DNA of 64,000 bases from a virus (Duplodnaviria; Heunggongvirae; Uroviricota; Caudoviricetes), in IMG/VR virus record IMGVR_UViG_3300023174_000034. One strand, written 5' to 3'. Positions 5,259 to 27,725 of the stretch are shown here, piece by piece. The position numbers and the translations under genes were made by a program. The notes under the pieces were generated by a model that ran no database searches, was not told the origin of the DNA, and saw nothing but the letters and a program-made list of their open reading frames with translations. Position 1 is the first letter of the stretch. Each line of letters starts with the position of its first letter.

Positions 5259-5492
5259 ATGATACTGTTCAAAGAAATTGCCATGGGCGATGTCGAGGAT
5301 CCAGAGCTCTACGCGGCCTTCCCAATCAATGAGTGGGAAAAAAGCGAAGTAGGTCAATGGGTCATGGCCCATGCTGTTGAGACTCCTAGTTTTCGTATTG
5401 TAATTAACCATCAAAGTTATGGTTACATGGTACAGATCTACGGCAAGCTTCGCGAGCAGGACGAAATAATTTATAGGTTAAAATACACATGA
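5259..5492 (+). CDS. hypothetical protein
   Basis: ATG 6 nt after TATAAT (5247-5252); fills the gap between thyA and the epimerase gene. Confidence 0.7.
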   Translation: MILFKEIAMGDVEDPELYAAFPINEWEKSEVGQWVMAHAVETPSFRIVINHQSYGYMVQIYGKLREQDEIIYRLKYT

Positions 5493-6466
5493 ACATTTTA
5501 GTAACAGGTGGGTGTGGTCTTATTGGACACAATGTTGTTAGTCAGCTGGAGCAACTGGGACACACGGTTGCTGTAACAGATACCAAAACAAACTACGGTA
5601 TCATTCCGCAAGAGGAAATTGATTACCTCATGAGCGAACGTCTTAAAAAGATCACGTCACCGGTGTACGGTGCAGACATTGCCAGTGACTCAATGGATTA
5701 CTTGTGCAAGAAGCACAGCATAGAAACTATTGTACATCTGGCCAGCTTGCCCAGACAAAAAGTTGTTAATGCAAATCCCATGTTGGGTGCAAGAACAATG
5801 ATGGAAGGCCTACTTAATCTACTGGAAACTGCACGTACAAACAATGTTAAAAAGTTTGTGTACGTCAGTAGTTCAATGGTATACGGTGACTTTGATAATA
5901 ATGTGACCGAAGATGCGCTGTGCAAGCCAATTGGGCAGTATGGCATTATGAAACTTGCAGGAGAAGACCTTGTCAAAGATTATACCCGTCGTGGTTGTTT
6001 TGATCACACTATTATCCGTCCCAGTGCTGTTTATGGGCCACTTGATGTTGAAGACCGAGTCGTTGCCAAATTCATGCTCACAGCAATGCGCGGCGGAGTG
6101 CTCCGAGTTAATGGAGCAAACGAAACCCTAGACTTTACCTACAGCGAAGATGCGGCCCGAGGCATTGTTGCTGCCACACTGTGTGATGCCGCAAACAACA
6201 AAACCTATAACATCACAAAAAGTCACTCTGTCAGCTTGTTAGAAGCCGCACAAAAGATCATGAATATTGCGTGTAACGGTACTATCGAAGTGCGTGACAA
6301 AGATGCAGACTTCCCGAGTCGTGGCGCTCTAAATATTGATGCGGCTCGAGAAGACTTTGGATTTGATCCGCAAGTGGATGTGCAAGAAGGATTCCACAAA
6401 TACTATGAATGGTTAAAACACAGCCCATACTGGCAGAAGAAACTAAATGAAGATTCCATTCACTAA
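5489..6466 (+). CDS. NAD-dependent nucleotide-sugar epimerase/dehydratase (extended SDR)
   Basis: GGCGLIG Rossmann motif, SSSMVYG, YGIMK (YxxxK), RPSAVYGP. Confidence 0.92.
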   Translation: MNILVTGGCGLIGHNVVSQLEQLGHTVAVTDTKTNYGIIPQEEIDYLMSERLKKITSPVYGADIASDSMDYLCKKHSIETIVHLASLPRQKVVNANPMLGARTMMEGLLNLLETARTNNVKKFVYVSSSMVYGDFDNNVTEDALCKPIGQYGIMKLAGEDLVKDYTRRGCFDHTIIRPSAVYGPLDVEDRVVAKFMLTAMRGGVLRVNGANETLDFTYSEDAARGIVAATLCDAANNKTYNITKSHSVSLLEAAQKIMNIACNGTIEVRDKDADFPSRGALNIDAAREDFGFDPQVDVQEGFHKYYEWLKHSPYWQKKLNEDSIH

Positions 6467-7532
6467 TCTATATCAGCAGTACCTGGACTGCAAACCAGAA
6501 ATTGATTCGGCCATTGCAAAGGTCATTGCTTCCAGCAGTTTCATTACAGGACCAGACGTCACAAAGTTTGAATCAGAATTTGCACAATACGTAGGCGCCG
6601 AGGATTGTGCCAGCACAGGTTCGGGTACCACAGCATTGCTGTGTGCCATGCGAGCCTTAGGCATTGGGGAAGGTGACGAAGTGCTGACTACCCCACATAC
6701 GTTTGTGGCCACAACAGAAGCCATTGTTAGTGTGGGTGCCACGCCGGTGTTTGTGGACATTGATCCAGACACACATCTAATAGATCTAGATCTATTGGAA
6801 CAGGCAATCACTCCTTATACTTGTGCTATCTTGTTTGTGGATATCTACGGACAATGTCCAGACATGCAACGACTGAATGCTATCCGTGAAAAATACGACT
6901 TGTACATTGTGGAAGATGCCGCACATAGCCTAGGCAATACATTCATGGGTCGTACTGTCGGCAGCTTTGCCGACATCACTTGTTTCAGTTTCAATCCTGT
7001 GAAAAACTTGGGTGCCATGGGCGATGCAGGTTGTGCAGTAGGACAGAAGATACTGATGGATCAGGTACGTATGTATCGCGATCACGGACGTACAGGGCGC
7101 TACGACATCGTGGAGATAGGATATAATGCACGTATCGACAACATGCAAAGCAATATCGTACTGGCCAAACTGCCTAAACTATACACCTGGTTAGAACGCA
7201 AGCGTACAATCTGTGCCTACTACAATCATCATCTCAAAGATGTGGTCAAGACTGTTAAAAGAGTGCAAGGTAACAGTCACAGTTACTATGTGTACGTTAT
7301 ACAAACGCCACAGCGTGACGGTCTCCGCAAGTTCTTGGAAGCCAAAGGTATTGGTACCAACATACACTATGCTACCACCACACACCAACAACCTGCATAC
7401 CTGCCTTGGTATCGTCCTTGCCCGGTAGCAGAACGTACAGTAAACGAAATCCTCAGCTTGCCGTGTTGGCCAAGCATGACCGACGAAGAAGTCAACTATG
7501 TGGTCGACTGTGTCAAGGAGTTCTTTCAATGA
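6447..7532 (+). CDS. DegT/DnrJ/EryC1/StrS PLP-dependent sugar aminotransferase
   Basis: SGTTAL, GDEV, TFVAT, EDAAHS, SFNPVKNLGAMGDAG (PLP Lys), GYNARID, LSLP. Confidence 0.95.
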   Translation: MKIPFTNLYQQYLDCKPEIDSAIAKVIASSSFITGPDVTKFESEFAQYVGAEDCASTGSGTTALLCAMRALGIGEGDEVLTTPHTFVATTEAIVSVGATPVFVDIDPDTHLIDLDLLEQAITPYTCAILFVDIYGQCPDMQRLNAIREKYDLYIVEDAAHSLGNTFMGRTVGSFADITCFSFNPVKNLGAMGDAGCAVGQKILMDQVRMYRDHGRTGRYDIVEIGYNARIDNMQSNIVLAKLPKLYTWLERKRTICAYYNHHLKDVVKTVKRVQGNSHSYYVYVIQTPQRDGLRKFLEAKGIGTNIHYATTTHQQPAYLPWYRPCPVAERTVNEILSLPCWPSMTDEEVNYVVDCVKEFFQ

Positions 7533-8419
7533 ACATGTGGCTGGTTGGTGCAGGCTACTGGGGTAGTAAACTGCTATCTGGGTTAGAAAAGCTAGGCGTA
7601 AATGGCCAAGTGATTGATATCAAAAACGGACAGACCATTGATGATATCAACGACCAAGGCCCTGTGATGCTGGCCACACCCTTGTGGGAACACTTTGGTC
7701 AGACCATGGAACTGCTGAGTCGTGGACACGATGTGTATGTAGAAAAGCCAGCGGCAGAATCCTGTGTTGAGGTCAGCAAGATGTCAGCAATGCTGAGAGA
7801 AGACCAACTGCTCATGGTAGGACATATCTTTATACATCATCCGCAGTTGGCTGAAATTAAAAATCTTATTGCTTCAGATAAAATAGGAAAGTTAGAACAT
7901 GTTACTAGCCGACGACTCAATTGGGGCATTTACCAAACACGCACCACACCTGTGCTAAGCCTTGCCGCACATGATATTAGTATTATCCTAGACGTGTGCG
8001 GCAACGAAGCCAGCATCTACGATGCCCACGGTTATTGTCACAGCGAGAATACACAATTTGATCGTGTGGTATTCCGCGGCGCCGCTGGCGGAATTACGTT
8101 TGATATTGATGTAAGCTGGACATGGCCTGTACGCACACGTGAAACAATTTTTCATGGCACTAAAGGACAAATTGTTTGGGACCAGGATGCTAATACTGTG
8201 ACTTTGTTTGGCAATCATATTGCAAACAATCGTGCTGTTGCTGATCCTAGTCCTGTTGTTAGCACATACCACTGGGACCTAACGCCACTGGAGTTTGAAT
8301 TAAAGCACTGGGTACACTGTGTCAACACACGCACTAGGCCACTGACAGGCGTGAGTAGTGCTTATCATGTGGCACGAGTTATTGATCAGGTTCATAACGA
8401 GATTGGAAGAAGGCCCTGA
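7529..8419 (+). CDS. Gfo/Idh/MocA family oxidoreductase (sugar dehydrogenase)
   Basis: VGAGYWG, VEKP, VGH, AAHD motifs; ATGA coupling to the aminotransferase gene. Confidence 0.88.
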   Translation: MNMWLVGAGYWGSKLLSGLEKLGVNGQVIDIKNGQTIDDINDQGPVMLATPLWEHFGQTMELLSRGHDVYVEKPAAESCVEVSKMSAMLREDQLLMVGHIFIHHPQLAEIKNLIASDKIGKLEHVTSRRLNWGIYQTRTTPVLSLAAHDISIILDVCGNEASIYDAHGYCHSENTQFDRVVFRGAAGGITFDIDVSWTWPVRTRETIFHGTKGQIVWDQDANTVTLFGNHIANNRAVADPSPVVSTYHWDLTPLEFELKHWVHCVNTRTRPLTGVSSAYHVARVIDQVHNEIGRRP

Positions 8420-9707
8420 GCCATTCCCAACGAAACGCTTTTTTGAGCTCATGGTTGTTTGAAATATTGTCATCAAAGAATTGTGCGCCATCGTTTGCAC
8501 CTCTTAGAACCCACTCAGCATTTGCTCCTGTTGCGTGGGTTCGCCATACATGTATGCGATAGTCTGTTTCTACACTAGGTTCATCCAGTTGCCACTGGCA
8601 CAGTTTACTCACTTCACGGAATGCTGTGCGCCACGCATGGTAAGGAGTAATAGCAAACTCTCCGTACACACTGGTCAGTGGAATTGATTCTGTAGCAAAG
8701 CTCATGGTAAAGTCCATACCGCCAATCTGTTCCCAAGGCTTGGAATTCAATATTGATTCCTTATGGTACATGATGATGCCCATGTGTCCATAACACAACC
8801 CATTGCTGGCATTTAGTGCGTTGAAGATATATTGCTTGGGTGCTTGCCAACGATCAGGTACAAAAGAGAAGTCCCAGCCTTCGTGTAGTCTTGTTTTGGC
8901 AAAGGTAGCATAAAACCAAGGTGTGGTACTTGTTGCGGCTGCGGCCTTTAAGGCATGTTCCATTCCTTCTACACCATGCACTCTTTGAGCTGTAGGAAAA
9001 CGGGCAACAAGTCTAGCCCAATTTTCATCTGCTTGTGGTTCATCGTAACTGATGAACACAATGTCTTGCTGTATACTTTGTACAGAGTTTACACGTACTA
9101 GATGCAGGTAATCATAAACCTGTGTCTTGAGGTAGTTTTGTGCTACTTTAGGCACAAGGCTGACACTATTATCCGCAGAAAAACTAATCAGCTGGTGGTG
9201 TTTTTCTCCCCACAGGCTAGGTTCAGTGTCTATGTGTGCTGTATATGTATTGCAGTTGAATAATTGATATTCGGATTGGAATTCCGTTGCCATAATTGTA
9301 GTGACCAAATCATTGTTGCCCACATGTACTTCGGGCCAGGCAACTCTTTTCGGGCCAGGGGAGTGATAGTTGACATCTTCGAACCATTCTAATAGTTCTG
9401 GCACCTGACGCTTGTATTCAGCAACAGGCACCAGCAGTATGTCTCCAAACTTTTGATCACCTGCGGCCCAACAATGTATTTGAGCAGCCTCCCATGGCAC
9501 TGGATCCCAATCAAATTCAAAGCCTACACAGTCTGAACAACTCATCACAATCCACACATGGCTTGTGCGAGAACGTTCTACACAACGCATGACAGTTGCC
9601 AGGACGCTGTGATAGTAGCGTGTGACTTGTGCATGTGGGTAACGCTGTTTGATTGACAGAATGTTTTGAGTGTGACTGCCTAGATCAACAACAAACATGT
9701 CATGCAT
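8379..9707 (-). CDS. glycosyltransferase-like protein (paralogue of 17207..18121) with degenerate N-terminal repeats
   Basis: DIVFISYDEP, NGLCYGHMG, TPYHAWRTAFRE shared with 17207..18121; FAK at the DxD position. Confidence 0.6.
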   Translation of the reverse strand: MHDMFVVDLGSHTQNILSIKQRYPHAQVTRYYHSVLATVMRCVERSRTSHVWIVMSCSDCVGFEFDWDPVPWEAAQIHCWAAGDQKFGDILLVPVAEYKRQVPELLEWFEDVNYHSPGPKRVAWPEVHVGNNDLVTTIMATEFQSEYQLFNCNTYTAHIDTEPSLWGEKHHQLISFSADNSVSLVPKVAQNYLKTQVYDYLHLVRVNSVQSIQQDIVFISYDEPQADENWARLVARFPTAQRVHGVEGMEHALKAAAATSTTPWFYATFAKTRLHEGWDFSFVPDRWQAPKQYIFNALNASNGLCYGHMGIIMYHKESILNSKPWEQIGGMDFTMSFATESIPLTSVYGEFAITPYHAWRTAFREVSKLCQWQLDEPSVETDYRIHVWRTHATGANAEWVLRGANDGAQFFDDNISNNHELKKAFRWEWLRAFFQSRYEPDQ

Positions 9708-10779
9708 CTTCGTTTCTCCACGTGTACTCGTATGTGCGTGTGTGCTCGCTAGTCTCAATTGAATAGATATTAAGATGCTTGGTCAACAAGTCCCATACTG
9801 CATACGGGTCAGTTGTTCCAAATGCTTGCTCTACATCAACATCACCAATGTGTAAGTATCCTAGACTGTTGTTGATATCTGTGGAATCAATATTGTTGTC
9901 AGCAAGCCATTGCTTGAACTCTGTCATCTGTTTGTCGTGCCAATCAAACACACCATCCACAATAGTCTTACCCCATTCAATATCAAACTCGCCTGAGTAG
10001 TATTTGAGTTGTGTGATTGCTTCGCACACGGTTTCTGTTAACACAGGGGCATTTTCATCTCTAAATACTTCAAAGTAGGTTTTACCTATTTGCGCCCAGT
10101 GCATGTACACTCCACCGAGCTTGCGGTTGAATCCATTTTGTGCAAATCCCACACGGTGTTCATCTGTTAGTTCATAACGTGGTGCATTATGGAATGTGGT
10201 GATCTGTACAGGGCGTGTCCACTCAGGCAATAGCATGTGTTTGCGTTGGCTCAGTACCAAGTTTTCTATTTCGTGGCATAGTGTGTTAAGGCGTCCCATT
10301 GCTTGACGTATGTGTGCAGGTGCCGCACGAAAGTAATTGCTAGGAGATTCAACTGTGCCTTGCAGTCTTTCAAAGTGATTGTGTATGCGATTCATTATTT
10401 CATGCTTGGTGCTATGAAACAACATCTCCGGAAACATCTGTAGTGGTGCAACATACTCTGGTCCATAGCGTACCACATCTGGTGCGAACCAATCCTCAAT
10501 ACGATATTGCGGAAGATCATGCTGTTGCCAGTTGTAAGTGTTGAGCGTATAGATGGCTCGATTCATCTGCTCGCACAAGTATTCTATGTCGCGAGGTGTG
10601 TCTGGAAAGCCCAAAAAGCAGTAGCTCTTGTTAAGGCGTAGTCCACGTTTGAGTATGTCGTTTAGTCCTGCTAGCCAATCCTTTGCAAGTGCATGATCTG
10701 CGGCTGTGATTGTGTATACCAGATCATTGTTTGTGTCTGGATCTCTTAGCGTTACTCTGATTTGATTTGTTTCCACCAT
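9700..10779 (-). CDS. hypothetical protein embedded in the radical SAM cluster
   Basis: 359-aa ORF overlapping both neighbours. Confidence 0.8.
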   Translation of the reverse strand: MVETNQIRVTLRDPDTNNDLVYTITAADHALAKDWLAGLNDILKRGLRLNKSYCFLGFPDTPRDIEYLCEQMNRAIYTLNTYNWQQHDLPQYRIEDWFAPDVVRYGPEYVAPLQMFPEMLFHSTKHEIMNRIHNHFERLQGTVESPSNYFRAAPAHIRQAMGRLNTLCHEIENLVLSQRKHMLLPEWTRPVQITTFHNAPRYELTDEHRVGFAQNGFNRKLGGVYMHWAQIGKTYFEVFRDENAPVLTETVCEAITQLKYYSGEFDIEWGKTIVDGVFDWHDKQMTEFKQWLADNNIDSTDINNSLGYLHIGDVDVEQAFGTTDPYAVWDLLTKHLNIYSIETSEHTRTYEYTWRNEDA

Positions 10780-12065
10780 GCTAATACTTCTGGCCTTTGT
10801 GCTAATATGTGTTCTAGTGTGTATGTATCTCTGCGGTATGCTTCCAGATTGGAAACTGTATACTTGGCTTTGCGTTGACCTGCAAGGTATGTGTCAGGCC
10901 AGTGTTCTTCAAATGTAGACTGTGTACGTAGTTGATCGAACAAGTCTGCCACATAGTGTGCATCTGTTCCTAGCTCTGCTTCGATGTCATTGATCCAGGC
11001 GTTTAGCAGTTCACGCGGCAGTATCTGTGGACTCATGCTAATGGCAGGATCAAACGCAAAACACAATTTGGTAAGCAAGTCTACATCGTACTCTTTGGCC
11101 AGCTTAACAATGTTCACAACTTCTGTCAAGCCGGGTAAAGTAAGAGTAAAGTCAATTCTCATCTGCCTTTTATGTCGTTGGATTGCAAGCCCTGCTTCGA
11201 AGTTGGTTCGCCATTGACTGTAGTCAAGACCTGTTCTGATGTATTCGCCGGTTTGCGATGTTCCGTCAAGACTTGCACATATTTGATAATCTCGGAGATT
11301 AACAAGTATATCCCTGTACAGATTACTACCCCGGTAATCAATGCGGCTAAGATTTGTATTATATCTACTATAAACATTACGTCCATCTCCTAATTCAATG
11401 ATGCGTAGCATGTACTTCCAATGCTGTTCGTACATGAGTGGCTCTCCACCTACCCAATACACTTCTTCTACCCTGTGTTCTTCTACTGCTGTGGCAAACT
11501 CTTGTTCTACCGTGCTGTCTTGGAACGCTGTGATTTCTGCCTTGACATCCGGTTTCATCCAAAGATTATCAGGGTGCTCCCAATAGTCCTTGGTCACTGC
11601 ATTCATACCTTTGAGTTCAGTTTCCCAACTGCTACTCAACTTGTCACCACACATGCGGCATTTGAAGTTGCACAGGTTACTGAAGCGGTAATCCCAGCTC
11701 ACGGGCTTCATTGTTGTACTACCATCCGGTGCAGTGGACGCTTGTACTTGCGCCCACTTGTGACCAAATAGATTGGTAAAGTAATCGCGGTATACAGATG
11801 AATTTAACAGTTTGTTGTTACATACGTCACACTCCGGTATTGTTTCTCCGCTGAGCATACGCTGGCGCACGGATCGCATGTGTTCTCCGTTCCAATGATC
11901 TTCTAGCGTGATAGGTATGTATCGACCAGTGCCGGCACTGGTATCAATATACTGCATGAAGTTTTGTGCAGGTTCACGACTTGCACAACACAGCCTACGC
12001 TCAGTTTGTGGACTTAGGTATGTGTGCGTCCACGGAGCAAGGCATAGATTATTAGGTTTTTCCAT
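10752..12065 (-). CDS. radical SAM enzyme with N-terminal Twitch/SPASM-like Cys cluster
   Basis: CLAPW..RLCC..CDVC then CNFKCRMC, GGEP, YNTN. Confidence 0.9.
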   Translation of the reverse strand: MEKPNNLCLAPWTHTYLSPQTERRLCCASREPAQNFMQYIDTSAGTGRYIPITLEDHWNGEHMRSVRQRMLSGETIPECDVCNNKLLNSSVYRDYFTNLFGHKWAQVQASTAPDGSTTMKPVSWDYRFSNLCNFKCRMCGDKLSSSWETELKGMNAVTKDYWEHPDNLWMKPDVKAEITAFQDSTVEQEFATAVEEHRVEEVYWVGGEPLMYEQHWKYMLRIIELGDGRNVYSRYNTNLSRIDYRGSNLYRDILVNLRDYQICASLDGTSQTGEYIRTGLDYSQWRTNFEAGLAIQRHKRQMRIDFTLTLPGLTEVVNIVKLAKEYDVDLLTKLCFAFDPAISMSPQILPRELLNAWINDIEAELGTDAHYVADLFDQLRTQSTFEEHWPDTYLAGQRKAKYTVSNLEAYRRDTYTLEHILAQRPEVLAWWKQIKSE

Positions 12066-13245
12066 ATCCCATTGCCTCGGCTATTTCGGTGTGTGTGTCT
12101 GCAAAGTTTTCTTTACGGTTAGCATCTGTTCTTTTCATGAACTCACAGAACCCTGTGCCATCTGTGCTTGTTCCGTTTTGTATAAAGCGGATAATACCTT
12201 CAACATCGTTGTGATACTTAGGATGGAAGATTCCATCACGTAGTTTTTCAATGACTGTTTCTTTTGCACAATCTCGCATGTGCCCAATATTCATATGAGG
12301 AGGATCGTGTAACATGTTTACGTAGGCCATGTTGAATCCTTGCGTGTCAACCCAACGGCATAGGTCTTCAAAGTAGTACACGTTCTGTACATTGATTGTC
12401 ATGCAGACTTGTAGTGTAATATTTCGTGACTCACGGCGTAGTTGTTTAGCATGTTCTATGTTGGCGCAAACCTCATTCCACTTTGCACCACTGCGTTCTA
12501 TTTCAAACTTAGTACCAATGTTGTCTATGCTAAATGCAATTTCTACATTCTTGAAATGTCTCCAAATATCCACAAGCTCTGCGTCCCATGTGGTGCCATT
12601 TGTATTGTAATGTATACTGATGTCTTTGGCGCAACCTAAGTCAACTGCTTGCTGAAGTAAATTAAAGTGTTCTTTAATAAGAAAAGGTTCACCACCTGTA
12701 AATTCAAAATACTTCACCTGTGGTAACAATGTTCCTAGATCTGTCCAGAATGTGTCTGATTTGCGTGGCCATTCACCTGCTCGTAATTGCAAGTATGCGC
12801 GAGTAGTTTTAGGATCACTGATTGTTTGATAATCCATTTCTTCTTGTGCCCACTTGCTACTTGACCATGTGCCGCATATACGACATTTCAAATTGCAGAT
12901 GTTGCCTAGTTTCAAATCAAGGAACCATAGTTGGTCAGGACTGGTATTGTACCAGTCTACTTGTGCTGTTTGATTTGCGAACTTTCGTAGGTGCCATTGT
13001 CGTTTGCTAGTACGACCAGCATCCTCTTCCGACCAACAGCGTTGACAAGTTTCAGGGCGTTCGGCATTTAAGAACTGCTGTCGTAGCTGTTGCATACTTT
13101 CACTCTTGTATGCTGTGGTCAAACCATCTGCAACTGTCAACCCGGGTATTTCCTCTGTGGCAAGACAACAAGGACGCAATGCACCCGTTGGTGTGGTCTC
13201 CATTGAGATCCAAGGTAATATACAGATCTTAGGGTGTGGGAGCAT
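12052..13245 (-). CDS. radical SAM enzyme with N-terminal Twitch/SPASM-like Cys cluster
   Basis: CILPW..RPCC..CQRC then CNLKCRIC, GGEP, YNTNG. Confidence 0.9.
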   Translation of the reverse strand: MLPHPKICILPWISMETTPTGALRPCCLATEEIPGLTVADGLTTAYKSESMQQLRQQFLNAERPETCQRCWSEEDAGRTSKRQWHLRKFANQTAQVDWYNTSPDQLWFLDLKLGNICNLKCRICGTWSSSKWAQEEMDYQTISDPKTTRAYLQLRAGEWPRKSDTFWTDLGTLLPQVKYFEFTGGEPFLIKEHFNLLQQAVDLGCAKDISIHYNTNGTTWDAELVDIWRHFKNVEIAFSIDNIGTKFEIERSGAKWNEVCANIEHAKQLRRESRNITLQVCMTINVQNVYYFEDLCRWVDTQGFNMAYVNMLHDPPHMNIGHMRDCAKETVIEKLRDGIFHPKYHNDVEGIIRFIQNGTSTDGTGFCEFMKRTDANRKENFADTHTEIAEAMGYGKT

Positions 13246-14539
13246 GTTTACGTAGTGCTTCTAGTTCTGGAAATGTAGCAAAAAAATCTTCATCTCGCAA
13301 TTTATCTAGCTCTGTAGTACGACTAAAGAATGTACTAAGCCAATGGTCATCAACAGTCTGTGCATCCATGAAGCTTAACATACCTCGGTACCCACTGGTG
13401 GCACGAGTTAGTTTGTCCTGCGGTTCCAACCATTTGATATGTTCTTCAATCTTCACACGTATCTGATCTTTTACTTCTTGCGGCAGGCAATCAATGCGGA
13501 ACCAATTTGGGCTTTGCAAAATGTTGATGTTAAAATCGTGTGGTTTGATCAATCCTAATTCAACCCATTCGCGATGAAAGTCTGCAATGTGCATTGCATT
13601 GTATATGCTGACTGTTGCACTAACATAGAAATCCACTTTGGGACAAATCTCTAACATGCGTTGACGATTCTTGACTGTTTCTTCCCAGTCTTGTCCTTTG
13701 CGAATATACTCGCCGCGGGCGCCGCTTGCGTCTAGACTAGCACCAACACTTACCACATCAAATTTCTTCCACAGTTCAAGTACGTCTTGATCTTTGTATG
13801 CCAGCTTGCTGAAGTTTGTGTTATAGATTAGTCGGACATGAAACATTTCACGCTTGACTAATTCGTTGAGCAAACGATAGTGTTCTTCCATGATAAGTGG
13901 TTCACCACCAGCAAAGTAAATTTGGTCCAGATGCGGAATATGCTCTTGCATTTGTTCCCACATGTCTTCATCTGTTTTACCAGCAAACATAATGCGCGGA
14001 TGACCACGATCGCCGTAGAGTTTGACTTCATCGTTGTACCAGTTGCTGGAAAAAATACTTCCACAACTGCGACAACGGAAGTTACACACGTTGGAGAAAC
14101 GAATATCGTAGTAGCGAAGTTTGAAATCTTCTACTGTGCCATCTTCTAATGTGTCGTCTACCAGTGCAATATGTTGTCCAAAGTTTTGACTAGTGCTGTG
14201 GCGCATACTAACAAATCCTGCTTTTTCTTGTTCGTAACACCGACCACACTCTTTGCTGGGTTTGCGATTAAGCATGTTCACACGCATGTCTCGCATGCCT
14301 TGGCTGTTCCAAACTTGTTTCATTGACTGTTCTTTAAGGTTACCAATGGGCATGTTGTATTCGCCCATACAGCAAGGATATGCACGACCATCTGGAAAGG
14401 CGTGCATGTGGATCCAGGGTATCATGCAAAAGTGTGGGTCTGTGGTCAACAGATCTTGATGCCGTTCTGGCATGGCATGTAAATTAGCATGGATAGGAAT
14501 CCTGCTGTTGTAAGTGTAGTCTTTAGGGTATTTGCTCAT
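13229..14539 (-). CDS. radical SAM enzyme with N-terminal Twitch/SPASM-like Cys cluster
   Basis: CMIPW..YPCC..CGRC then CNFRCRSC, GGEP, YNTN. Confidence 0.9.
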   Translation of the reverse strand: MSKYPKDYTYNSRIPIHANLHAMPERHQDLLTTDPHFCMIPWIHMHAFPDGRAYPCCMGEYNMPIGNLKEQSMKQVWNSQGMRDMRVNMLNRKPSKECGRCYEQEKAGFVSMRHSTSQNFGQHIALVDDTLEDGTVEDFKLRYYDIRFSNVCNFRCRSCGSIFSSNWYNDEVKLYGDRGHPRIMFAGKTDEDMWEQMQEHIPHLDQIYFAGGEPLIMEEHYRLLNELVKREMFHVRLIYNTNFSKLAYKDQDVLELWKKFDVVSVGASLDASGARGEYIRKGQDWEETVKNRQRMLEICPKVDFYVSATVSIYNAMHIADFHREWVELGLIKPHDFNINILQSPNWFRIDCLPQEVKDQIRVKIEEHIKWLEPQDKLTRATSGYRGMLSFMDAQTVDDHWLSTFFSRTTELDKLRDEDFFATFPELEALRKHAPTP

Positions 14540-15860
14540 AGAATTCCTTTAGCTCAGGGAAAGTTTCGATAAAGTTCTTTCCTCTGCGTTGATCATATTG
14601 TGTGTAAAATTGTTTGAAGTCGTTTTGCATCCTGGGCAACTCTGGTCCAGTCACTGGCTCTTGCAAGTAGTCGTGCAGGCGAGTCAGTTGATTGATTTCG
14701 TGTTCGTGCCATAGCTCGCTACCTTTGTGGTTATCCAGGAATGTTGCAATTTCCATTGCATACAGTTTGCGGTCTGCCAGCGAAAGCACGTACACGCCTT
14801 GGAAACTTGGAAAGCGTAAAATGTTAAAGCTCATGCTAGGAAAATCTCTACCATATGTTTTCTTAAGCATCATCATTGTGGTCAAGAAAACAGGCAGGCC
14901 TGGCAAACATAATGCGTTGATTGTACACATAACATGCAGTCCGCGGATGCCACTGGTCGCTAGTTTCTCTACATTTGCCAACCAGGCTTTCCAGTCTAGT
15001 CCATCACGAATGTATTCAGCGTGTAAGCCAACTGCCTCACAACTGGTGTACACGTCTAGTTCAATGCCCTGGGTAGATTCAATCAAGCGGTCCACATCAA
15101 CTTCCCGACCAAGATTTGTGTTGATAGCTAGACGTGTGCTCGAACGTCCTTGGTTTTGTTTGAACCAGTCAATGAGTTGCCAGGTGTGAGCTGACATGAG
15201 TGGCTCTCCTCCGGTGATGCGGAGTTCTGTAAGGGTGCGGTGTAGGTCAGTTTCCCACCACTTGAAAAAAGCCTCCACATACGGATTAGTTTCACCGAAT
15301 TTATAAAGTTGACTACTATCATGAGCATGAGTAAAATGACCGCGCCCGTCTGATACCAGGTTAATGTAGGGTCCGTTTTTACGTATGTCATTAACCCAAG
15401 TACTACTAAAAGCAGGGTTGCAATAAGAACAAGCAAACTGGCAAGTTCTGTCAAAAGCAATTTCCAACGTGCGAAGGTTGAAGTCGGTATAACTTGGTCT
15501 GGCGAATGCAACATTTAGGTCCTCCTCGGAATGTATCACAGTTTTATAAACACGATCGGAAATGGCATCCTTGTTCATGTCTTCGATCTTCCAGCAGTAA
15601 TCGCAGCCTGCTGGGCGTTCACCACGTTGCATCTGTTCACGCTCTTTTTTCTTTTGCGTGGTATTGTGCAATGCGGCAGGGTTAGTTTTAATTTCATCCA
15701 AGTCAATGGCATGTGGTAACGGATGATGACAACTGGTTGTTTGTCCGCTACCCAACCATATGGTAGCATTGTACCACTTGGCTCCACAGAAGCTTGACGA
15801 CTTGATGTCGATTACTCTGCGTTTGTATTCAAGGTCTGTTTCGTTATTCTGTTTCGGCAT
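14523..15860 (-). CDS. radical SAM enzyme with N-terminal Twitch-like (CxH) cluster
   Basis: CGAKW..SCHH..CDYC then CQFACSYC, GGEP. Confidence 0.9.
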   Translation of the reverse strand: MPKQNNETDLEYKRRVIDIKSSSFCGAKWYNATIWLGSGQTTSCHHPLPHAIDLDEIKTNPAALHNTTQKKKEREQMQRGERPAGCDYCWKIEDMNKDAISDRVYKTVIHSEEDLNVAFARPSYTDFNLRTLEIAFDRTCQFACSYCNPAFSSTWVNDIRKNGPYINLVSDGRGHFTHAHDSSQLYKFGETNPYVEAFFKWWETDLHRTLTELRITGGEPLMSAHTWQLIDWFKQNQGRSSTRLAINTNLGREVDVDRLIESTQGIELDVYTSCEAVGLHAEYIRDGLDWKAWLANVEKLATSGIRGLHVMCTINALCLPGLPVFLTTMMMLKKTYGRDFPSMSFNILRFPSFQGVYVLSLADRKLYAMEIATFLDNHKGSELWHEHEINQLTRLHDYLQEPVTGPELPRMQNDFKQFYTQYDQRRGKNFIETFPELKEFYEQIP

Positions 15861-17217
15861 GGTATTTACACAGGCTCCAAAATTCTTTCATCTCACCAAA
15901 TGTTGCCAGGAAGTCAGTAGACCTACGTCTGTCATGTTCTGCAAAGAAACGATAAAAGTCTGCACGATCATGTTTCAATGATGTAGTGTCTTGTGGTTCG
16001 CGCATCCAAGCAAGGTTGCGTTCCATACGTTGTATTTCATAATCCTTGAAGCCAACAAAGCCGTCATCTTTAAGTTCGTTTTCACGCATCCACTCAATGA
16101 CTTTTTCTAGCTTGTAGGCATAGCTCTCGGGCAGGATTTGTAAACTCTGCCAGCGTGGTTGTCTCAGCAGTGGTGTGTCGAACCACACACGTTGATATGT
16201 TCTACTGTGTCTAGCACGTAGTTCAAGAATGTAATCTAACAAGTCTTGTAAGCCTGTGATGTTTAGATTGTTCATTGTGATAATGAATGTAAGGCTGTTC
16301 TTGTACGGAATGTCTGTGAGATAACTATCCACATTGTTCAAGCAACGTTCAAATTCTAATCCATCTCGTAGATATTCAGCTTGGTCGGCCACACCAGTAT
16401 CCAGGCTCACATACTGCATGAAGTGTTCTATTTGTGTGTTACACAGACGTTTGACATAGCCAAGATACTTGTCCATTAGCTTTTGTTCTACACTAAAATT
16501 ACTTGTAACGTCAAGATGTAGATCTGGCTTGGGCAATGCCAACACATAGTCAAATACTCTGTATGTGTTGTAATCCATCAGCGGCTCGCCGCCTGTCATT
16601 CGGAAGTGTTTGAGCCGGGGATAGAGACTAGGCCACCACTCCCAAAATGCGTCAACATAAGGGTTATGCTCTCTGGCAGGAATAGGACGACGGCTACCAG
16701 TAAAATGCTCAGGGGCATTGTGAGGTACACGAGTAGGCCAAGCACCGAAGGTGTTTGTTTCTCCTGCCCATGCACTACTAAACTGTGGACTACAGTAACT
16801 ACATTTAAGATTGCAAGCATGATTAAAATTAACTTCAACATAACTTGGAACGACATCTTCATCTCCTATGGCATTTTTAATTGGATGTAAATATTCGGCG
16901 GCCCAGGGCTCACCGCTACGATAATGCCTGTCACTCAATTGCCCATTGTCCTCGGCTGACCAGCAATAGCTACATTCGTCTGGACGTTCATTCTTCAGCA
17001 TGATCACACGCTGTTGTTTCTTGTATGGCGTATTGTGTAGAGCACTAGGATTGTCTGCCAACAGCTCTGTAGGAATCTTGTGCAGTGGCGGGTGATAGCA
17101 TGAGTTAGTCATGCCTGTTGTTAGGTGCAGACTGACCTGTTGCCATTTGGCCAAACAGAGACTAGGACCCAGTATGTCCTTCATTTCTTCGGCGGCGTAT
17201 TTGAACTCACTGGTCAC
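15844..17217 (-). CDS. radical SAM enzyme with N-terminal Twitch-like (CxH) cluster
   Basis: CLAKW..SCYH..CSYC then CNLKCSYC, GGEP. Confidence 0.9.
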   Translation of the reverse strand: MTSEFKYAAEEMKDILGPSLCLAKWQQVSLHLTTGMTNSCYHPPLHKIPTELLADNPSALHNTPYKKQQRVIMLKNERPDECSYCWSAEDNGQLSDRHYRSGEPWAAEYLHPIKNAIGDEDVVPSYVEVNFNHACNLKCSYCSPQFSSAWAGETNTFGAWPTRVPHNAPEHFTGSRRPIPAREHNPYVDAFWEWWPSLYPRLKHFRMTGGEPLMDYNTYRVFDYVLALPKPDLHLDVTSNFSVEQKLMDKYLGYVKRLCNTQIEHFMQYVSLDTGVADQAEYLRDGLEFERCLNNVDSYLTDIPYKNSLTFIITMNNLNITGLQDLLDYILELRARHSRTYQRVWFDTPLLRQPRWQSLQILPESYAYKLEKVIEWMRENELKDDGFVGFKDYEIQRMERNLAWMREPQDTTSLKHDRADFYRFFAEHDRRRSTDFLATFGEMKEFWSLCKYHAETE

Positions 17218-18121
17218 GTGTCATTATCCCTTTGTTTTGAAAATTGCTTTTGTAATGATGTTTGAAGAACGCACTAGGCTCTGGATCTAGATCTACAATA
17301 TTCAAGTCTAGTTGTTTGCGAAGTTTTTCTCCTAGTTCATTACACTCATCAGGGCCGTGATTTTGATACATAGCCCACATGCGTTCTAGTTCATCAAAGT
17401 CTTGTACCTGTGTGTAGTCCCAGTTGCTTAACATAGTTAAACTGGTTCCACGGCGTGCGCCATAGATGGCCCAGAAGCCATTAGGATCATCTGCGCCAAC
17501 GCTTTGCCATATGGTCAAGTTATCTAGATTACGACTATGCACACGCTGTTTGAAATCACTTAGGCTAGGTCGTGCTCCGCGATCCAGACACATCTTTACA
17601 CCTTCACGGAATCCTGCTCTCCATGCTTGAAAAGGAGTTTGATTGGGATATGTTGTTGAATAACAATCGTGCATGGCCCAGTAGCGTGGATCAAAGCAAA
17701 ACTCTACCTGTGTTTCTGCACGACCATCTGTTGCTTCGTGTGTACGCATGGCGTTGACAAAGTCTTTGGTCCAACAACTTAATCCACCATTGCCATACAT
17801 CAGTCCATTAACCACATTACGTGCTCGCCAGCGAAATACACAATCACGATTGCTGTCGTCCAATTCAAGTTGGAGATTAAAAAAGCCAACATCAGGAATG
17901 TTGTCACCGTCAATAAGAATAAATCTATCAGTGCTACTGGCAGACGCCGCGGCTTTGTGTGCCGCATCACTTCCTTTGATACCGTCAACTCGTTTTGCCC
18001 AAGGAACCATGTTTTTAATTTTGATCCAAAACTCATCTTTTTTAGGCTCGTCGTAGGTCAGGAACACGACATCTAAGTCAGCTATGTCTACTAGTTTTTG
18101 AGTACTGTTTGATTGTGTCAT
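17207..18121 (-). CDS. putative GT-A fold glycosyltransferase
   Basis: DVVFLTYDEP N-terminal strand; AHKAAA helix followed by FILIDGDN (DxD), in GT2-like spacing. Confidence 0.65.
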   Translation of the reverse strand: MTQSNSTQKLVDIADLDVVFLTYDEPKKDEFWIKIKNMVPWAKRVDGIKGSDAAHKAAASASSTDRFILIDGDNIPDVGFFNLQLELDDSNRDCVFRWRARNVVNGLMYGNGGLSCWTKDFVNAMRTHEATDGRAETQVEFCFDPRYWAMHDCYSTTYPNQTPFQAWRAGFREGVKMCLDRGARPSLSDFKQRVHSRNLDNLTIWQSVGADDPNGFWAIYGARRGTSLTMLSNWDYTQVQDFDELERMWAMYQNHGPDECNELGEKLRKQLDLNIVDLDPEPSAFFKHHYKSNFQNKGIMTRDQ

Positions 18122-18461
18122 ATTCTTCCCCTGCCTCTAATAGCAACGCCATATGGTTAGCGACAGCTTGATATTCACCTTCAGAGGTTTGATGTAATTT
18201 TACTATATGTGTCCGTGTTTTGTCAAGTTTTATTAACTTTCCACTGACTATTTTATACTGGGTGACATTACGGGCTTGGTCACTTGTTATGTCAATCCAT
18301 GAGTATTCTAAATCAGGCCAGTCTGGGCCATTGGCCACAGTTACAAAACGGTCAGCATCGTGATACACTCGCCATTGGTCACGTGGGGGATGTTGTGCCA
18401 GCTGTTGCTCTATGACAGCATACTCAAGTATTGCTTGTTCAAATGGCGTTGGCATAGTCAT
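18078..18461 (-). CDS. hypothetical protein
   Basis: ORF overlapping both neighbours in the cluster. Confidence 0.7.
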   Translation of the reverse strand: MTMPTPFEQAILEYAVIEQQLAQHPPRDQWRVYHDADRFVTVANGPDWPDLEYSWIDITSDQARNVTQYKIVSGKLIKLDKTRTHIVKLHQTSEGEYQAVANHMALLLEAGEEYDTIKQYSKTSRHS

Positions 18462-19248
18462 CTATTATCTGGTCTGTTACCCATTCTTTGTTGTGATAAT
18501 GAACTGGGTATAACTGTTCATGACCATTTATGCGTATGACAGGCGGAACTAGTTCTACATTTAGATCAGCAATACTGCGTGTCTGGATGGCCTGTTTCAT
18601 ATGTACAAAATTAAAAAAATCTGCAGCCGGTAGTGTTACTTTGTCTACTCCAACCAATACTGCTGCCAGTGCAAATACCATGTCATTGCTGCCAGGGTCG
18701 TCGCATCGCACAAGTTCTGTTTGCACTGTTGACCATTGTTGATACAGTTGTTTACACTTGCCAAAGAAATGTGCGGCCAGTTGACTTTTTCGCCAGTACA
18801 TGAGACCAGAGTATGTGTCTGGTAAATCGTTGGCATCAAATGTTTTTCTGTATGCACGACTAGTTGCACAGCGGCCCCGATAGTCTCTACATCCCAGGCT
18901 AAGAACAACATCACGATGTTCTAACATTCGCCACCAGTGCGAGATACTGCAAGTAAACAGCAGGTCTGATTCAACTTTGATTGTTTGTGTAAACGGACTT
19001 AGTGCAAACAACTGCCAGTCGTTGCGCTGTTTCCACTCTTGATCTTTTGCCCAATCAATTGGCAGTACTATAATATAGTCAAACACCACACGTTGTTTGT
19101 CTGTTAGTTTATCTGCGCTTGATTGGTCTGTTACCAGCGCATAAGGTAAATCAGGATTGGTCAGTTTCAAGCTCAACCTTTGCAAATATGCAAGACGTAT
19201 ATAGTCAGTGGACTCATTGTTTTGCGCCATGCAAATCACGCCTCGCAT
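18439..19248 (-). CDS. putative GT-A (GT8-like) glycosyltransferase
   Basis: LSPFTQTIKVESDLL (ExD), YSGLMYW, NDMVF, VHYH; paralogue of the next gene. Confidence 0.6.
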   Translation of the reverse strand: MRGVICMAQNNESTDYIRLAYLQRLSLKLTNPDLPYALVTDQSSADKLTDKQRVVFDYIIVLPIDWAKDQEWKQRNDWQLFALSPFTQTIKVESDLLFTCSISHWWRMLEHRDVVLSLGCRDYRGRCATSRAYRKTFDANDLPDTYSGLMYWRKSQLAAHFFGKCKQLYQQWSTVQTELVRCDDPGSNDMVFALAAVLVGVDKVTLPAADFFNFVHMKQAIQTRSIADLNVELVPPVIRINGHEQLYPVHYHNKEWVTDQIIDDYANAI

Positions 19249-20003
19249 ATAAACTTCTCCAGCTTAGTGCTTTGTAACCATTCCTTGCTCATCACATGCA
19301 GATCTGTACGTGGCAATACCAGTGCATTGTCTTGTGTTCGTACTGTGATCCAATCCTTGTTGATTTGAACATCTGTCAGTGCTTGATCTGCTGTGACAAT
19401 TCCAAACGGCATGTTTGTTGCGCTACTACGATTGTATCCACCAATGATAATTTCTGCCATGGCAAAAGCATAGTCGTTACGAAAACGCAATTCAACAATG
19501 CCAAACAACACACGATAGTATTCCCAGTTGCGCTGTATGCGCCCTACCAGTTCAAAGAACAATCTTGTGCGTTCAGTTTTGCGAAAATAAAAAACTGTGG
19601 CCCACACAGGAGTAAGTGCAGTAACATCCAGTGTGGGACGGAATAACATTTCGTTTTTATGACAAAGTAGCAGGTCTTGTGTGCTGTCAAATAAATTTAG
19701 TAACCGTTGGGTGGTGATCAAATAGTCAACATCAATTACCAGCGTTTGTTCAAAAGGTGACAGTTCCCAGGCCTGGTAACGATTGAAGTTGTTCCATACC
19801 ACTGTTTTTTGTTGATCAACGTCAAATCGTGTGTTACGCCAGTTGTCTTGTTTTTGCCCAATCACCAAATGCACAGGTAGTCCTAGAGACTTTGATGCCA
19901 ATTGTAAAGTTTTGTTAGCTATACGTTCGTAGTCCACTGTGGGACTGTTATTGGCAAAGGCCAGTATGCCTTTAGATTTTTCTGACACGCTGAAGTTCTT
20001 CAT
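19236..20003 (-). CDS. putative GT-A (GT8-like) glycosyltransferase; start uncertain (19988-20012)
   Basis: LSPFEQTLVIDVDYL (DxD), RNDYAF, LHVMSK. Confidence 0.62.
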   Translation of the reverse strand: MKNFSVSEKSKGILAFANNSPTVDYERIANKTLQLASKSLGLPVHLVIGQKQDNWRNTRFDVDQQKTVVWNNFNRYQAWELSPFEQTLVIDVDYLITTQRLLNLFDSTQDLLLCHKNEMLFRPTLDVTALTPVWATVFYFRKTERTRLFFELVGRIQRNWEYYRVLFGIVELRFRNDYAFAMAEIIIGGYNRSSATNMPFGIVTADQALTDVQINKDWITVRTQDNALVLPRTDLHVMSKEWLQSTKLEKFICEA

Positions 20004-20283
20004 GTAAGCCATGCCATCTATTTAGGACTCGTTGATATTGTTGTTTACATTTTTCGAGCAATGCTGTGCGGTTGCAGTGTATAGGATTACCGTATTGATC
20101 TTCTACAAACAGCTCATCGTCTGTCCATGCGTTTAGAAAACCAATCAGTTCAGGAGTTACAATAAACAAGCCATCATTATGATGTACCACAAGGTCAGCT
20201 TTTGTTTGCTCTCGTAACAGAGTACGATTGCGTTGAATGTCTGTGGCTTGTTTTATTTCAAGTGCAAGTGCAGTTAGGGTCAT
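19972..20283 (-). CDS. hypothetical protein, first gene behind a late-type promoter in the GT/radical SAM cluster
   Basis: 103-aa ORF; TAAGTA 5 nt upstream of ATG. Confidence 0.75.
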   Translation of the reverse strand: MTLTALALEIKQATDIQRNRTLLREQTKADLVVHHNDGLFIVTPELIGFLNAWTDDELFVEDQYGNPIHCNRTALLEKCKQQYQRVLNRWHGLHEELQRVRKI

Positions 20284-20309
20284 ACTAGTACTTATTTTGC
20301 ACTAGCACG
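20281..20309 (-). promoter_or_regulatory. late-promoter variant TAAGTA inside an 11-bp RNA hairpin that buries the AUG
   Basis: Minus strand CGTGCTAGTGC-aaaataa-GTACTAGTATG, 11 pairs including three G-U; TAAGTA at 20289-20294. Confidence 0.55.
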
Positions 20310-20319
20310 AGTCCTAAAA

Positions 20320-21408
20320 TTAAGGCGACTGAGCGATTAGTGCAATAGATCCAACTGTTGGATTAGACCATGTTTTAGTAACTGTTGCCCCTGCGCCTGA
20401 CTGATCGATCAAGTCAATTGCTATCCCGGTTCGAACATCAAGATTATCTGTGTTCCAGGCAGGCAATGCACCGGTACTACCAAATCCTGATGATATTCTA
20501 AACACAATTACAATGCTTTTACCAACTGCTCCGTTATCAAGGCCGTTGCCTGTTACATCTGCGCGATAGGCATAAACCGTGATGAAACTGTCTGAATATG
20601 CGCCACTTCCAAGTGAGTTCGATCCCAGCTGTAGTGAACTGGTTCCCAAGGTCCAATATCCTTTACCTGCACCTGTATTACTGCCCGAATCATTGCCAGC
20701 AAAACCAGTGTTGTTGTATGCAGAGATATAACATTCGCCTATACCATTGATAGTACTCACAAGAGCCGCTGATCGATCATTTGCTGGGCTACCAATGGTA
20801 GATCCAGCAAAACTTATTCTTAGTTGGCCGCCGGCGTTAAAGAACCAGCGAGCGTGATCTCCAGTGGGCCAGGATATTTTGCAACTGTACTCTCTCATGA
20901 CAGTACCAGCGTAAGTTGCAGTGTTCAAGTCCACAGTTCTGGTTGCGCTAACTGATGTAGTAGCTATTCCAAAAGTTGGAACTGGGCTGTCAAACCAAAC
21001 ATTGGCAGAAGTCATTTTGGCTGCAACAGAAGCAAATGTTGAGATAGTTCGTCCTTGAGCCGGAGTCGGACTCATTGAAAGATTGCCGGTTGCGCCTTCC
21101 TGGTAATATCTCATGCGATTCAATGCTGAAAAGAAGCCAATCCACGACTGTGCTTCAACAAGATCGCCTGTGTTGACTGGTTGTAGTTTGCCTTTTCGAT
21201 CAGACAGCACAGCCGAAACTGGGTTCTGTGGCAGTCCTGGAATTTCTAAACTTTCCATGTCCTGATTCAGACCTCGATTGGCTTTTCCTGGTCCCCATAT
21301 GTAGTTGATATTGTTACCTACAACAACTCCATTGTTGCCCGTTGGATCTCCCCAAACAAAGTTGTTGTAGTCTTCGTTGTCGATCAGTGAACCAGTTAGA
21401 TACGTCAT
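20320..21408 (-). CDS. putative virion structural protein (tail/baseplate accessory)
   Basis: G/S/T/N-rich, ARWFFNAGG motif, last gene of the structural block. Confidence 0.6.
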   Translation of the reverse strand: MTYLTGSLIDNEDYNNFVWGDPTGNNGVVVGNNINYIWGPGKANRGLNQDMESLEIPGLPQNPVSAVLSDRKGKLQPVNTGDLVEAQSWIGFFSALNRMRYYQEGATGNLSMSPTPAQGRTISTFASVAAKMTSANVWFDSPVPTFGIATTSVSATRTVDLNTATYAGTVMREYSCKISWPTGDHARWFFNAGGQLRISFAGSTIGSPANDRSAALVSTINGIGECYISAYNNTGFAGNDSGSNTGAGKGYWTLGTSSLQLGSNSLGSGAYSDSFITVYAYRADVTGNGLDNGAVGKSIVIVFRISSGFGSTGALPAWNTDNLDVRTGIAIDLIDQSGAGATVTKTWSNPTVGSIALIAQSP

Positions 21409-21409
21409 G

Positions 21410-24019: not shown

Positions 24020-24041
24020 TTACCTGGACTCCGATTTGTTG

Positions 24042-24049
24042 TATTTATA
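24042..24049 (-). promoter_or_regulatory. T4 late promoter consensus TATAAATA
   Basis: Exact TATAAATA on the minus strand in the intergenic gap; GGAG RBS and ATG (24019) downstream. Confidence 0.8.
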
Positions 24050-27374: not shown

Positions 27375-27725
27375 TTACCTGGTGCCAAGTATGCTGACCA
27401 CTGTGCCCACAGGGTAACTTAAATTAGCCACAGTAACATTTGCTAGTCCATAAACACCGTTTGCATTAGACGCTGTATAAGTCCAAACATGTGCACCGAT
27501 ACGGAGATATCCCAACTTACCAGTAGATGGACTAGACACCAAGGTGACGTTGGATACAGAAATCCAACTGTTGGCTGAGTTATTTGCAGTCAATGTTACT
27601 AATTTGGGCAGTCTGGGATCTGCGCTGGGAACATAAGATTTAGATGCTCGCAAAAAGTCAGCTTGGAAAGTACTACTTCCAAAAATTCCAACTCCTGCCG
27701 TAACTACGTTTGATACAATATTCAT
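27375..27725 (-). CDS. small putative structural protein
   Basis: TAATG coupling to the giant gene; beta-strand-like S/T/V/N-rich sequence. Confidence 0.65.
   Translation of the reverse strand: MNIVSNVVTAGVGIFGSSTFQADFLRASKSYVPSADPRLPKLVTLTANNSANSWISVSNVTLVSSPSTGKLGYLRIGAHVWTYTASNANGVYGLANVTVANLSYPVGTVVSILGTR

Follow-up and report, generated by a model that had tools for sequence, protein, structure and literature searches.

Positions 8379-20283 of a 64,000-nt virus sequence (IMG/VR record IMGVR_UViG_3300023174_000034, Caudoviricetes; the whole stretch is hereafter the window) hold 12 neighbouring open reading frames (ORFs), all on the minus strand and numbered here g1-g12 in transcription order from 20283 down to 8379. 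We propose that this operon builds a sugar structure and tailors it by radical chemistry, a reading that is probable and well supported because the family of its radical S-adenosylmethionine (SAM) enzymes lies, in bacteria, mostly among polysaccharide genes. The fuller proposal, a self-contained cytoplasmic operon for glycan assembly and glycan editing whose likeliest acceptor is a virion protein, we hold at slightly less than even confidence. All 12 proteins lack a membrane segment (12/12 checked). The cluster lies directly 3' of two fibre-like genes (21410-24019 and 24073-26658; PHROG tail-fibre and virion-protein matches), as an earlier note on this DNA had described for its 12 contiguous minus-strand genes, with a variable gene of 362 amino acids (aa; 20320-21408, minus strand) between the nearer fibre-like gene and g1. 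Farther upstream of the fibre-like genes are an ORF of 6176 aa and gp6-like and VgrG-like baseplate genes. The window derives from an uncultured jumbo myovirus of fresh water; its sequence occurs in DNA sequencing runs from lakes, and a megablast search of deposited phages gave no match to the cluster DNA.

Pfam, NCBIfam, and PDB searches were applied to the cluster proteins, and structure models were made for g3 and g5. The g3 model (pLDDT 95.4) retrieved the UGGT catalytic domain, glycogenin, LgtC, and xyloside xylosyltransferase in Foldseek (E ~1e-8, TM 0.5-0.6), and a profile of g3 relatives matched glycogenin over its first 109 positions (E 2e-4); on the model, g3 is predicted to fold as a glycosyltransferase (GT) of the GT8/GT24-like GT-A type. 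Its paralogue g2 (E 2.7e-14, 23% identity) belongs to a family with DxD in the alignment columns where the g3 family has ExD. D189, H250, and K254 are common to both proteins, H250 and K254 being invariant in both families, and H250 is a putative metal ligand. In Pfam, neither protein matched PF01501/GT8 at E up to 0.01. GT8-like enzymes usually use macromolecular or lipid-linked acceptors, a property that counts against a soluble product of the pathway.

The g5 family is unusually well conserved (at least 8000 relatives, many >70% identical) and keeps D71-G72-D73-N74 invariant in 21 sequences. Only residues 7-150 of the g5 model (pLDDT 73.6) matched the GT-A/nucleotidyltransferase fold, weakly (Z 7.1, rmsd 3.2, 123 residues aligned), and the look-alikes of g5 and of g12 were viral only. 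The C-terminal half of g12 is a paralogue of g5 (E 1.2e-15, 29% identity) in which FAK replaces DGD, with the same loss of DxD in the L003 orthologue; the probable true start of g12 is the ATG at 9707, since relatives align from residue 18. The earlier note had counted four GT-like genes in two paralogous pairs. The pairs stand, as does the expectation that the proteins adopt or resemble a GT-A fold (strongly for g3, weakly for g5 at Z about 7), but because g12 has no DxD motif only three of the four look catalytically equipped from their sequences.

The five tandem genes g6-g10 (10752-17217) all encode proteins above the curated cut-off of NF033640 (N_Twi_rSAM; 170 bits, whole-protein score), with scores of 279-411 bits. 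In g8, Pfam places a SPASM domain at residues 38-102 and Radical_SAM at 147-305, that is, an auxiliary domain N-terminal to the core. When the five paralogues were aligned with three extra copies, four N-terminal cysteines (C38, C57, C98, and C101), the CxxxCxxC motif (C152, C156, and C159), and G211-G212-E213-P214 (GGEP) were invariant, and profile positions 4-102 aligned with the twitch domain of BtrN (E 0.002). Based on these scores, the domain placement, the retained residues, and the BtrN alignment, all five enzymes look active, with one auxiliary cluster each, and the five tandem radical SAM genes of the earlier note are borne out with their cluster motifs intact. The NF033640 family shares the order seen in g6-g10 (N-terminal four-cysteine auxiliary-cluster domain, CxxxCxxC core, and GGEP) and is catalogued with no assigned reaction, whereas its members here are five paralogues that have diverged and keep a fixed order, in a phage operon that also encodes glycosyltransferases. 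BtrN, the butirosin radical SAM dehydrogenase (PDB 4M7T), resembles them in its alignable twitch domain and acts on a sugar-like aminocyclitol, but its twitch domain is C-terminal rather than N-terminal and the similarity of the cores is remote.

Solved structures matching the radical SAM enzymes include the sugar- or nucleotide-acting BtrN, BlsE, and viperin. Resemblance of the cores leaves the substrate class undecided, because the best solved core match, 8VPO, which was tried as an indicator of that class and rejected, is TvgB, an enzyme of RiPPs (peptides synthesised on ribosomes and then modified post-translationally). The cleanest orthologous group is that of g10 (58-66% identity in 25/26 relatives and 43% in one), which is monophyletic in the tree with support 1.0. 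Literature searches for an enzyme of this N-terminal-twitch type, or for radical SAM together with tail fibre, returned nothing specific.

Relatives of the radical SAM enzymes were found in 334 bacterial stretches (genome scan, alignment A6), a few of which are misbinned phage contigs (L085-L090 and L142); a bacterial genome scan with g8 alone gave no match. The remaining carriers belong to Bacteroidota, Bdellovibrionota, Elusimicrobiota, Alphaproteobacteria, and Paenibacillus, and often hold tandem arrays. Because contigs of bacterial metagenome-assembled genomes (MAGs) carry three to seven tandem copies (L091, an unclassified MAG, and L094, L109, L143, L154, and L157, with Bdellovibrionota and Elusimicrobiota among them), arraying is a property of the family and not of phages only. 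Neighbouring genes encode carbamoyltransferase (seven loci), DegT/SDR proteins, an ABC-2 exporter, GT4, GT2, and GT90 enzymes, and UbiA-type, SGNH, and FAD-binding oxidase proteins. These neighbourhoods give independent support for a saccharide substrate, short of proof.

To compare gene order, we used two surveys: the best 80 of the IMG/VR contigs, at least 586, that were retrieved with g5 as the anchor, and 80 contigs anchored on an unrelated upstream gene (u234). The order fibre, variable gene of ~350 aa, g1, g2, g3, (g4), g5, radical SAM array, and g11 was essentially invariant in the g5-anchored set (80/80). In the u234-anchored set, g1/g2/g3/g5 followed the fibre genes in 38/80 contigs, and the other 42/80 had a flank that was short, fibre-filled, or unmatched; in L242, of this set, the sole other match was thyA on the opposite strand. 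Linkage to fibre genes, proposed as a check when the cluster was first described, therefore holds in every g5-anchored contig and in the u234-anchored contigs wherever the flank passes the fibres. Within the array the order g6-g7-g8-g9-g10 is kept, with extra copies inserted at places, and the number of radical SAM copies between g5 and the g12-like gene ranges from zero (L175, L188, L200, L217, and L218) through one at this locus in the Ralstonia phage RsoM2USA to seven (L002). Because some relatives have no radical SAM gene there and L002 has seven, the glycosyltransferase core is the constant part and the radical SAM block, g11 included, an optional add-on.

Among 50,697 deposited phage genomes, g5 was found in RsoM2USA (MG752970; PMC8504454) alone, a cultured phage carrying the core. 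Along its ORF354-348, orthologues of g1, g2, and g3 are followed by an unrelated gene, a g5 orthologue, a g6/g7-like radical SAM gene, and a g5-like gene. This set comes right after ORF361, 359, and 356, which are virion proteins by mass spectrometry (PMC8504454). A second locus, ORF203-199 (L246 7117-12693), encodes an SGNH protein, a g7 orthologue (ORF202, 51% identity to g7), an unassigned protein, another SGNH protein, and a NodU-type carbamoyltransferase. Like the window, RsoM2USA thus places core orthologues after confirmed virion proteins; unlike the window, it has two radical SAM genes only, split over two loci, and all of these genes are annotated as hypothetical. The 6176-aa ORF of the window is a single ORF (27725-46255, minus strand) between baseplate and fibre genes, and the equivalent region of RsoM2USA encodes ORF361, a virion protein of >288 kDa (PMC8504454).

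Genes for nucleoside diphosphate (NDP) sugars converge on g12 from the plus strand: a short-chain dehydrogenase/reductase (SDR) of the dehydratase/epimerase type (5489-6466), a DegT/PseC-type aminotransferase (6447-7532), and a Gfo/Idh/MocA oxidoreductase of uncertain start that ends at 8419. The last overlaps the 3' end of g12 by 41 bp (8379-8419), leaving no room for terminators between the convergent units. SDR or DegT genes lie beside or inside the module also in L048, L075, L076, L082, L175, and RsoM2USA, and relatives carry, after g11, SGNH-type genes and genes for a NodU-type O-carbamoyltransferase, a P-loop kinase, and dCMP deaminase. The NDP-sugar genes of the window come after folA and thyA; ThyA, previously called canonical, reaches 362.6 bits against the equivalog cut-off of 327 that marks an ordinary thymidylate synthase, which argues weakly against a role on DNA.

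Three genes match no family in Pfam and NCBIfam (g1, g4, and g11), in agreement with the earlier count of three genes of no recognised kind, and g1 and g11 had no Pfam or PDB match. Only in the closer relatives, about 20/83 loci, can g4 be recognised. For g11, Pfam scans of 22 family members gave chance-level matches only and an ESM Atlas feature search gave no usable match, although the family counts 707 representative relatives. It adjoins g10 wherever the contig flank extends that far, and in one contig (P0378; L084 1284-3548) it is fused with a g8-like N-terminal-twitch radical SAM protein. A complex prediction of g10 with g11 gave an uncontrolled score of 0.00 and no verdict. In L084, Laminin_G_3 (lectin-like) proteins flank the radical SAM genes around the fusion.

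The 36-nt gap before g1 and the first g1 codons fold as a hairpin (-20.2 kcal/mol, z -5.5, 0/200 shuffles as stable), in which an inner 12-bp stem pairs 20299-20310 with 20280-20291 and the g1 AUG (20281-20283) is fully paired. The AUG-burying hairpin of the earlier note is therefore real in prediction; comparable hairpins that bury the start, with arms of other sequence, are present in the closer relatives L014, L006, and L001 and in a minority of relatives overall. The same note had read TAAGTA at this site as a late-type promoter and the cluster as late-expressed and fused to the tail operon. The window contains 17 copies of TAAGTA where 29 would be expected, and motif counts there showed no enrichment of TAAGTA, AATAAGTA, TATAAATA, or GGTTGAC. 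A T4-type late (gp55) promoter, defined as TATAAATA ~6 nt upstream of the start site without a -35 element, was not found upstream of g1, where AATAAGTA agrees with the TATAAATA consensus at 6/8 positions. The only exact TATAAATA in the window (24042-24049, minus strand) is 22 nt upstream of fibre gene 21410-24019; looser ATAAATA-like motifs occur before the structural genes 46266-49796 and 56107-56913. A sigma-70-type promoter, defined by TTGACA-like and TATAAT-like hexamers 16-18 nt apart, was not found before g1 of the window either, the sequence there being TAGGAC-N16-TAAGTA with 2/6 in each hexamer.

Comparison of 59 distinct relatives gave a different picture of the homologous position. 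TATAAT-like hexamers are concentrated 5-7 nt upstream of the g1 start codon (5/6 or better for 36 of the matches), with TTGACA, TTGACT, or TTTACT 17 nt before this -10 and usually a GC-rich terminator hairpin farther upstream; examples are TTGACA-N17-TAAAAT in L075 and TTTACT-N17-TATAAT in many relatives. The terminator hairpin followed by the promoter, with no Shine-Dalgarno sequence before the g1 orthologue, is found in L025, L028, L050, L065, L068, L075, and many others. The position of the -10, the -35 at 17 nt, and the usual terminator together predict, for these relatives, a leaderless g1 mRNA from a sigma-70-type promoter, insulated from the fibre operon. The hexamer of the window is thus more probably the remnant of a sigma-70-type -10 than a late-type promoter, and late timing is not supported, since most relatives have a terminator and their own TTGACA/TTTACT-N17-TATAAT promoter. 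Fusion to the tail operon holds for the sub-lineage of the window only, since in most relatives terminator and promoter separate the two operons: the 36-nt gap in the window has no terminator-like site, and in the window and L001 the terminator is lost and TAAGTA alone is left at the same spacing. Early timing alone would not exclude virion decoration.

In phage T4, read-through RNA has the start site of gene e and of soc masked by a hairpin, and transcripts from a promoter within that hairpin can be translated. Here, likewise, start-burying hairpins have a promoter-like hexamer in or at them (the -10-like TATACT in the 5' arm in L014 and L006; TAAGTA at the junction of loop and 3' arm in the window), and we interpret the hairpin as locking read-through RNA. 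The T4 internal promoter is a late TATAAATA, in contrast to the sigma-70-like promoters with a -35 of the relatives and to the degenerate hexamer of the window. The 9-mer AAATAAGTA occurs before g1 in the window and also upstream of ORF354 in RsoM2USA (L164 5696-5712), ~60 nt from the ATG, where it is followed by a 9-bp hairpin and then TACAAT 3 nt before the ATG; the match may reflect a common signal or coincidence.

We propose the following scheme. Sugars would be transferred from nucleotide sugars by the GT8-like g2 and g3 and the GT-A-like g5 with its DGD motif, activities suggested by fold, with the convergent SDR/DegT/Gfo genes supplying some of these nucleotide sugars as amino sugars. 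The next step would be hydrogen abstraction from sugar carbons by the five radical SAM enzymes, acting together with g11 and leading to oxidation, epimerisation, or deoxygenation, as in the twitch enzyme BtrN; HygY is another twitch enzyme that serves as a model for such chemistry. Relatives may add O-carbamoyl and SGNH-type acyl steps. To judge from the relatives, the operon would run from its own promoter and not from the late fibre promoter, and in this phage, where the terminator is gone and the promoter appears to have degenerated, the hairpin would lock the g1 AUG in read-through transcripts. The glycan assembly line with radical tailoring that the earlier note had envisaged is thus supported in part, by the GT-A folds, the intact radical SAM enzymes, the fibre linkage, the sugar genes, and the bacterial polysaccharide loci; its late timing is not supported, and the virion is a candidate target.

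As acceptor, a virion protein of the tail-fibre/baseplate apparatus is the most probable target, at somewhat below an even chance; the operon follows the genes of that apparatus in every relative examined. A bolder version is doubtful: a tail-fibre/baseplate glycan whose sugars are rewritten by up to seven radical SAM enzymes, a C-H chemistry new for glycoproteins, with the variable enzyme set acting as a swappable "virion serotype". If true, serotype-like variation (0 to 7 enzymes) would tune adsorption or hide the particle from host defences.

Several results weigh against a glycan on the virion. Position beside the fibres does not identify the acceptor, and the second RsoM2USA set of radical SAM, SGNH, and carbamoyltransferase genes is ~94 kb from the fibres. 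The conservation of g5, far higher than that of the hypervariable fibres, fits a conserved acceptor better than fibre tips, and a sigma-70-type promoter would suit host-surface or DNA targets just as well. The enzymatic assignments have weak points as well: all four GT-like proteins fall short of a Pfam threshold, the g5 fold match is as good for nucleotidyltransferases as for glycosyltransferases, and the best Foldseek match of g5, PBCV-1 A64R (PDB 2P6W), is weak (E 0.015). The peptide-modifying TvgB (8VPO) and SkfB are among the nearest solved radical SAM cores, and the Paenibacillus locus has ketosynthase and AMP-binding (fatty-acid/polyketide-type) neighbours instead of sugar genes.

The best-surviving alternative, which we rate as unlikely, is that the enzymes, soon after infection begins, remodel a host envelope glycan (lipopolysaccharide [LPS] core or O-chain, or capsule) and so block superinfection or re-adsorption of progeny to dying cells. 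Serotype conversion is classically a trait of temperate phages, a point against this reading. The promoter of the relatives would be early, as this role asks, GT8 enzymes are typically LPS-core transferases, and the bacterial radical SAM homologues occur in exported-polysaccharide loci with an ABC-2 transporter. Yet the 12 proteins, besides having no membrane segment, include none like a flippase, polymerase, or polyprenyl-phosphate transferase, which means full dependence on host export machinery, and the strict fibre linkage across diverged phages is left unexplained. Host O-chain modification was the reading proposed for the host-recognition cluster of pelagimyophages, in which fibre genes are followed by GT8 and by radical SAM cassettes subject to gain and loss (Zaragoza-Solas et al. 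2020; PMC7029224). That cluster resembles the window in having radical SAM cassettes and GT8 after the fibres, and differs in lineage and habitat and in that its genes were noted without promoter, fold, or family analysis.

Could the radical SAM enzymes act on protein instead, making RiPP-like cross-links, epimerisations, or oxidations in the fibre protein or in g1/g4, with glycosylation as a separate activity of the GTs? SPASM/twitch enzymes are often peptide modifiers, the best solved core matches are the peptide maturases named above, and distant loci of g11 with radical SAM genes adjoin Laminin_G_3 proteins and an Asp/Asn hydroxylase. We nevertheless find this improbable: the N-terminal domain is a twitch domain, the Pfam/NCBIfam matches include no RiPP recognition element (no dedicated search for one was made), no short precursor-like gene is conserved (most relatives are without g4), the bacterial neighbours are mostly sugar enzymes, and the sugar- or nucleotide-acting BtrN, BlsE, and viperin match as well.

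Hypermodification of phage DNA, with bases glycosylated and the attached sugars then tailored, is very improbable. GT-A-type enzymes can glycosylate DNA bases, the probably early sigma-70-type promoter would suit, and the cluster borders genes of nucleotide metabolism (in the window folA and thyA, in L002 those for dCMP deaminase and a P-loop kinase), but ThyA is an ordinary thymidylate synthase, the Pfam/NCBIfam scans detected no hydroxymethylase, TET/JBP, ParB, or DNA-binding domain in the cluster, and the module lies in the structural region in all relatives. A soluble glyco-metabolite (aminoglycoside- or nucleoside-like) that decorates no macromolecule hardly deserves credence, even with the antibiotic-pathway enzymes BtrN and BlsE among the nearest solved relatives and a cyanophage set of radical SAM and aminotransferase genes read as 'antibiotic synthesis genes' (PMC12801897), for an exporter, a resistance gene, and a cyclitol-forming enzyme are all absent and the conserved fibre linkage would go unexplained.

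For a glycan on the virion, the closest parallels are mycobacteriophage virion glycosylation (Freeman et al. 2023, as cited in PMC12619734) and the PBCV-1 system (A64R), which resemble the window in having virus GT-A enzymes near structural proteins or acting on them. Virion glycosylation has been demonstrated there and is a proposal here, and those systems are without radical SAM enzymes. Four core glycosyltransferase groups are recorded in 'moraphages' (PMC12619734), and a marine T4-like genome carries 12 radical SAM genes (PMC5332604). The g5 family comprises >8000 sequence clusters in public metagenomes, compared to its one occurrence among the deposited phage genomes. The presence of five diverged copies in one pathway implies that a single product undergoes several distinct radical steps, which would be new sugar or glycoprotein chemistry; if the product is on the tail apparatus, it bears on host recognition and defence evasion by giant aquatic phages. 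Leaderless mRNAs are, moreover, predicted in a large clade of aquatic jumbo phages. The features of the cluster and its surroundings are listed in Table 1.

Table 1 Features of the g1-g12 cluster and adjoining units in the window (MFE, minimum free energy).
Feature	Position	Strand	Remark
Upstream fibre unit	20320..24049	-	TATAAATA 24042-24049, fibre-like gene 21410-24019, 362-aa gene 20320-21408
Hairpin pairing the g1 AUG	20274..20317	-	MFE -20.2 kcal/mol, z -5.5
TAAGTA hexamer	20289..20294	-	5 nt before g1 ATG
g1, 103 aa, no family match	19972..20283	-	First operon gene, conserved
g2, 258 aa, GT8-like, DxD	19236..20012	-	Paralogue of g3
g3, 269 aa, predicted GT8/GT24-like GT-A, retaining-type, ExD	18439..19248	-	Profile match and model
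g4, 127 aa, no family match	18078..18461	-	Recognisable in closer relatives only
g5, 304 aa, GT-A-like, DGD; module anchor gene	17207..18121	-	Motif and weak fold match
g6, N-terminal-twitch radical SAM	15844..17217	-	NF033640 305.5 bits
g7, N-terminal-twitch radical SAM	14523..15860	-	NF033640 279 bits
g8, N-terminal-twitch radical SAM, most typical family member here	13229..14539	-	NF033640 410.9 bits
g9, N-terminal-twitch radical SAM	12052..13245	-	NF033640 342 bits
g10, N-terminal-twitch radical SAM	10752..12065	-	NF033640 279.1 bits
g11, 359 aa, no family match	9700..10779	-	Travels with these radical SAM enzymes
g12, N-terminal domain without known match and g5-like domain (FAK for DGD)	8379..9758	-	Paralogy to g5
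Convergent NDP-sugar genes	5489..8419	+	SDR, DegT/PseC-type, Gfo/Idh/MocA

At the edge of the window, before folA and thyA, positions 1-984 (plus strand) encode a DUF2201 metallopeptidase-like and VWA-like protein.

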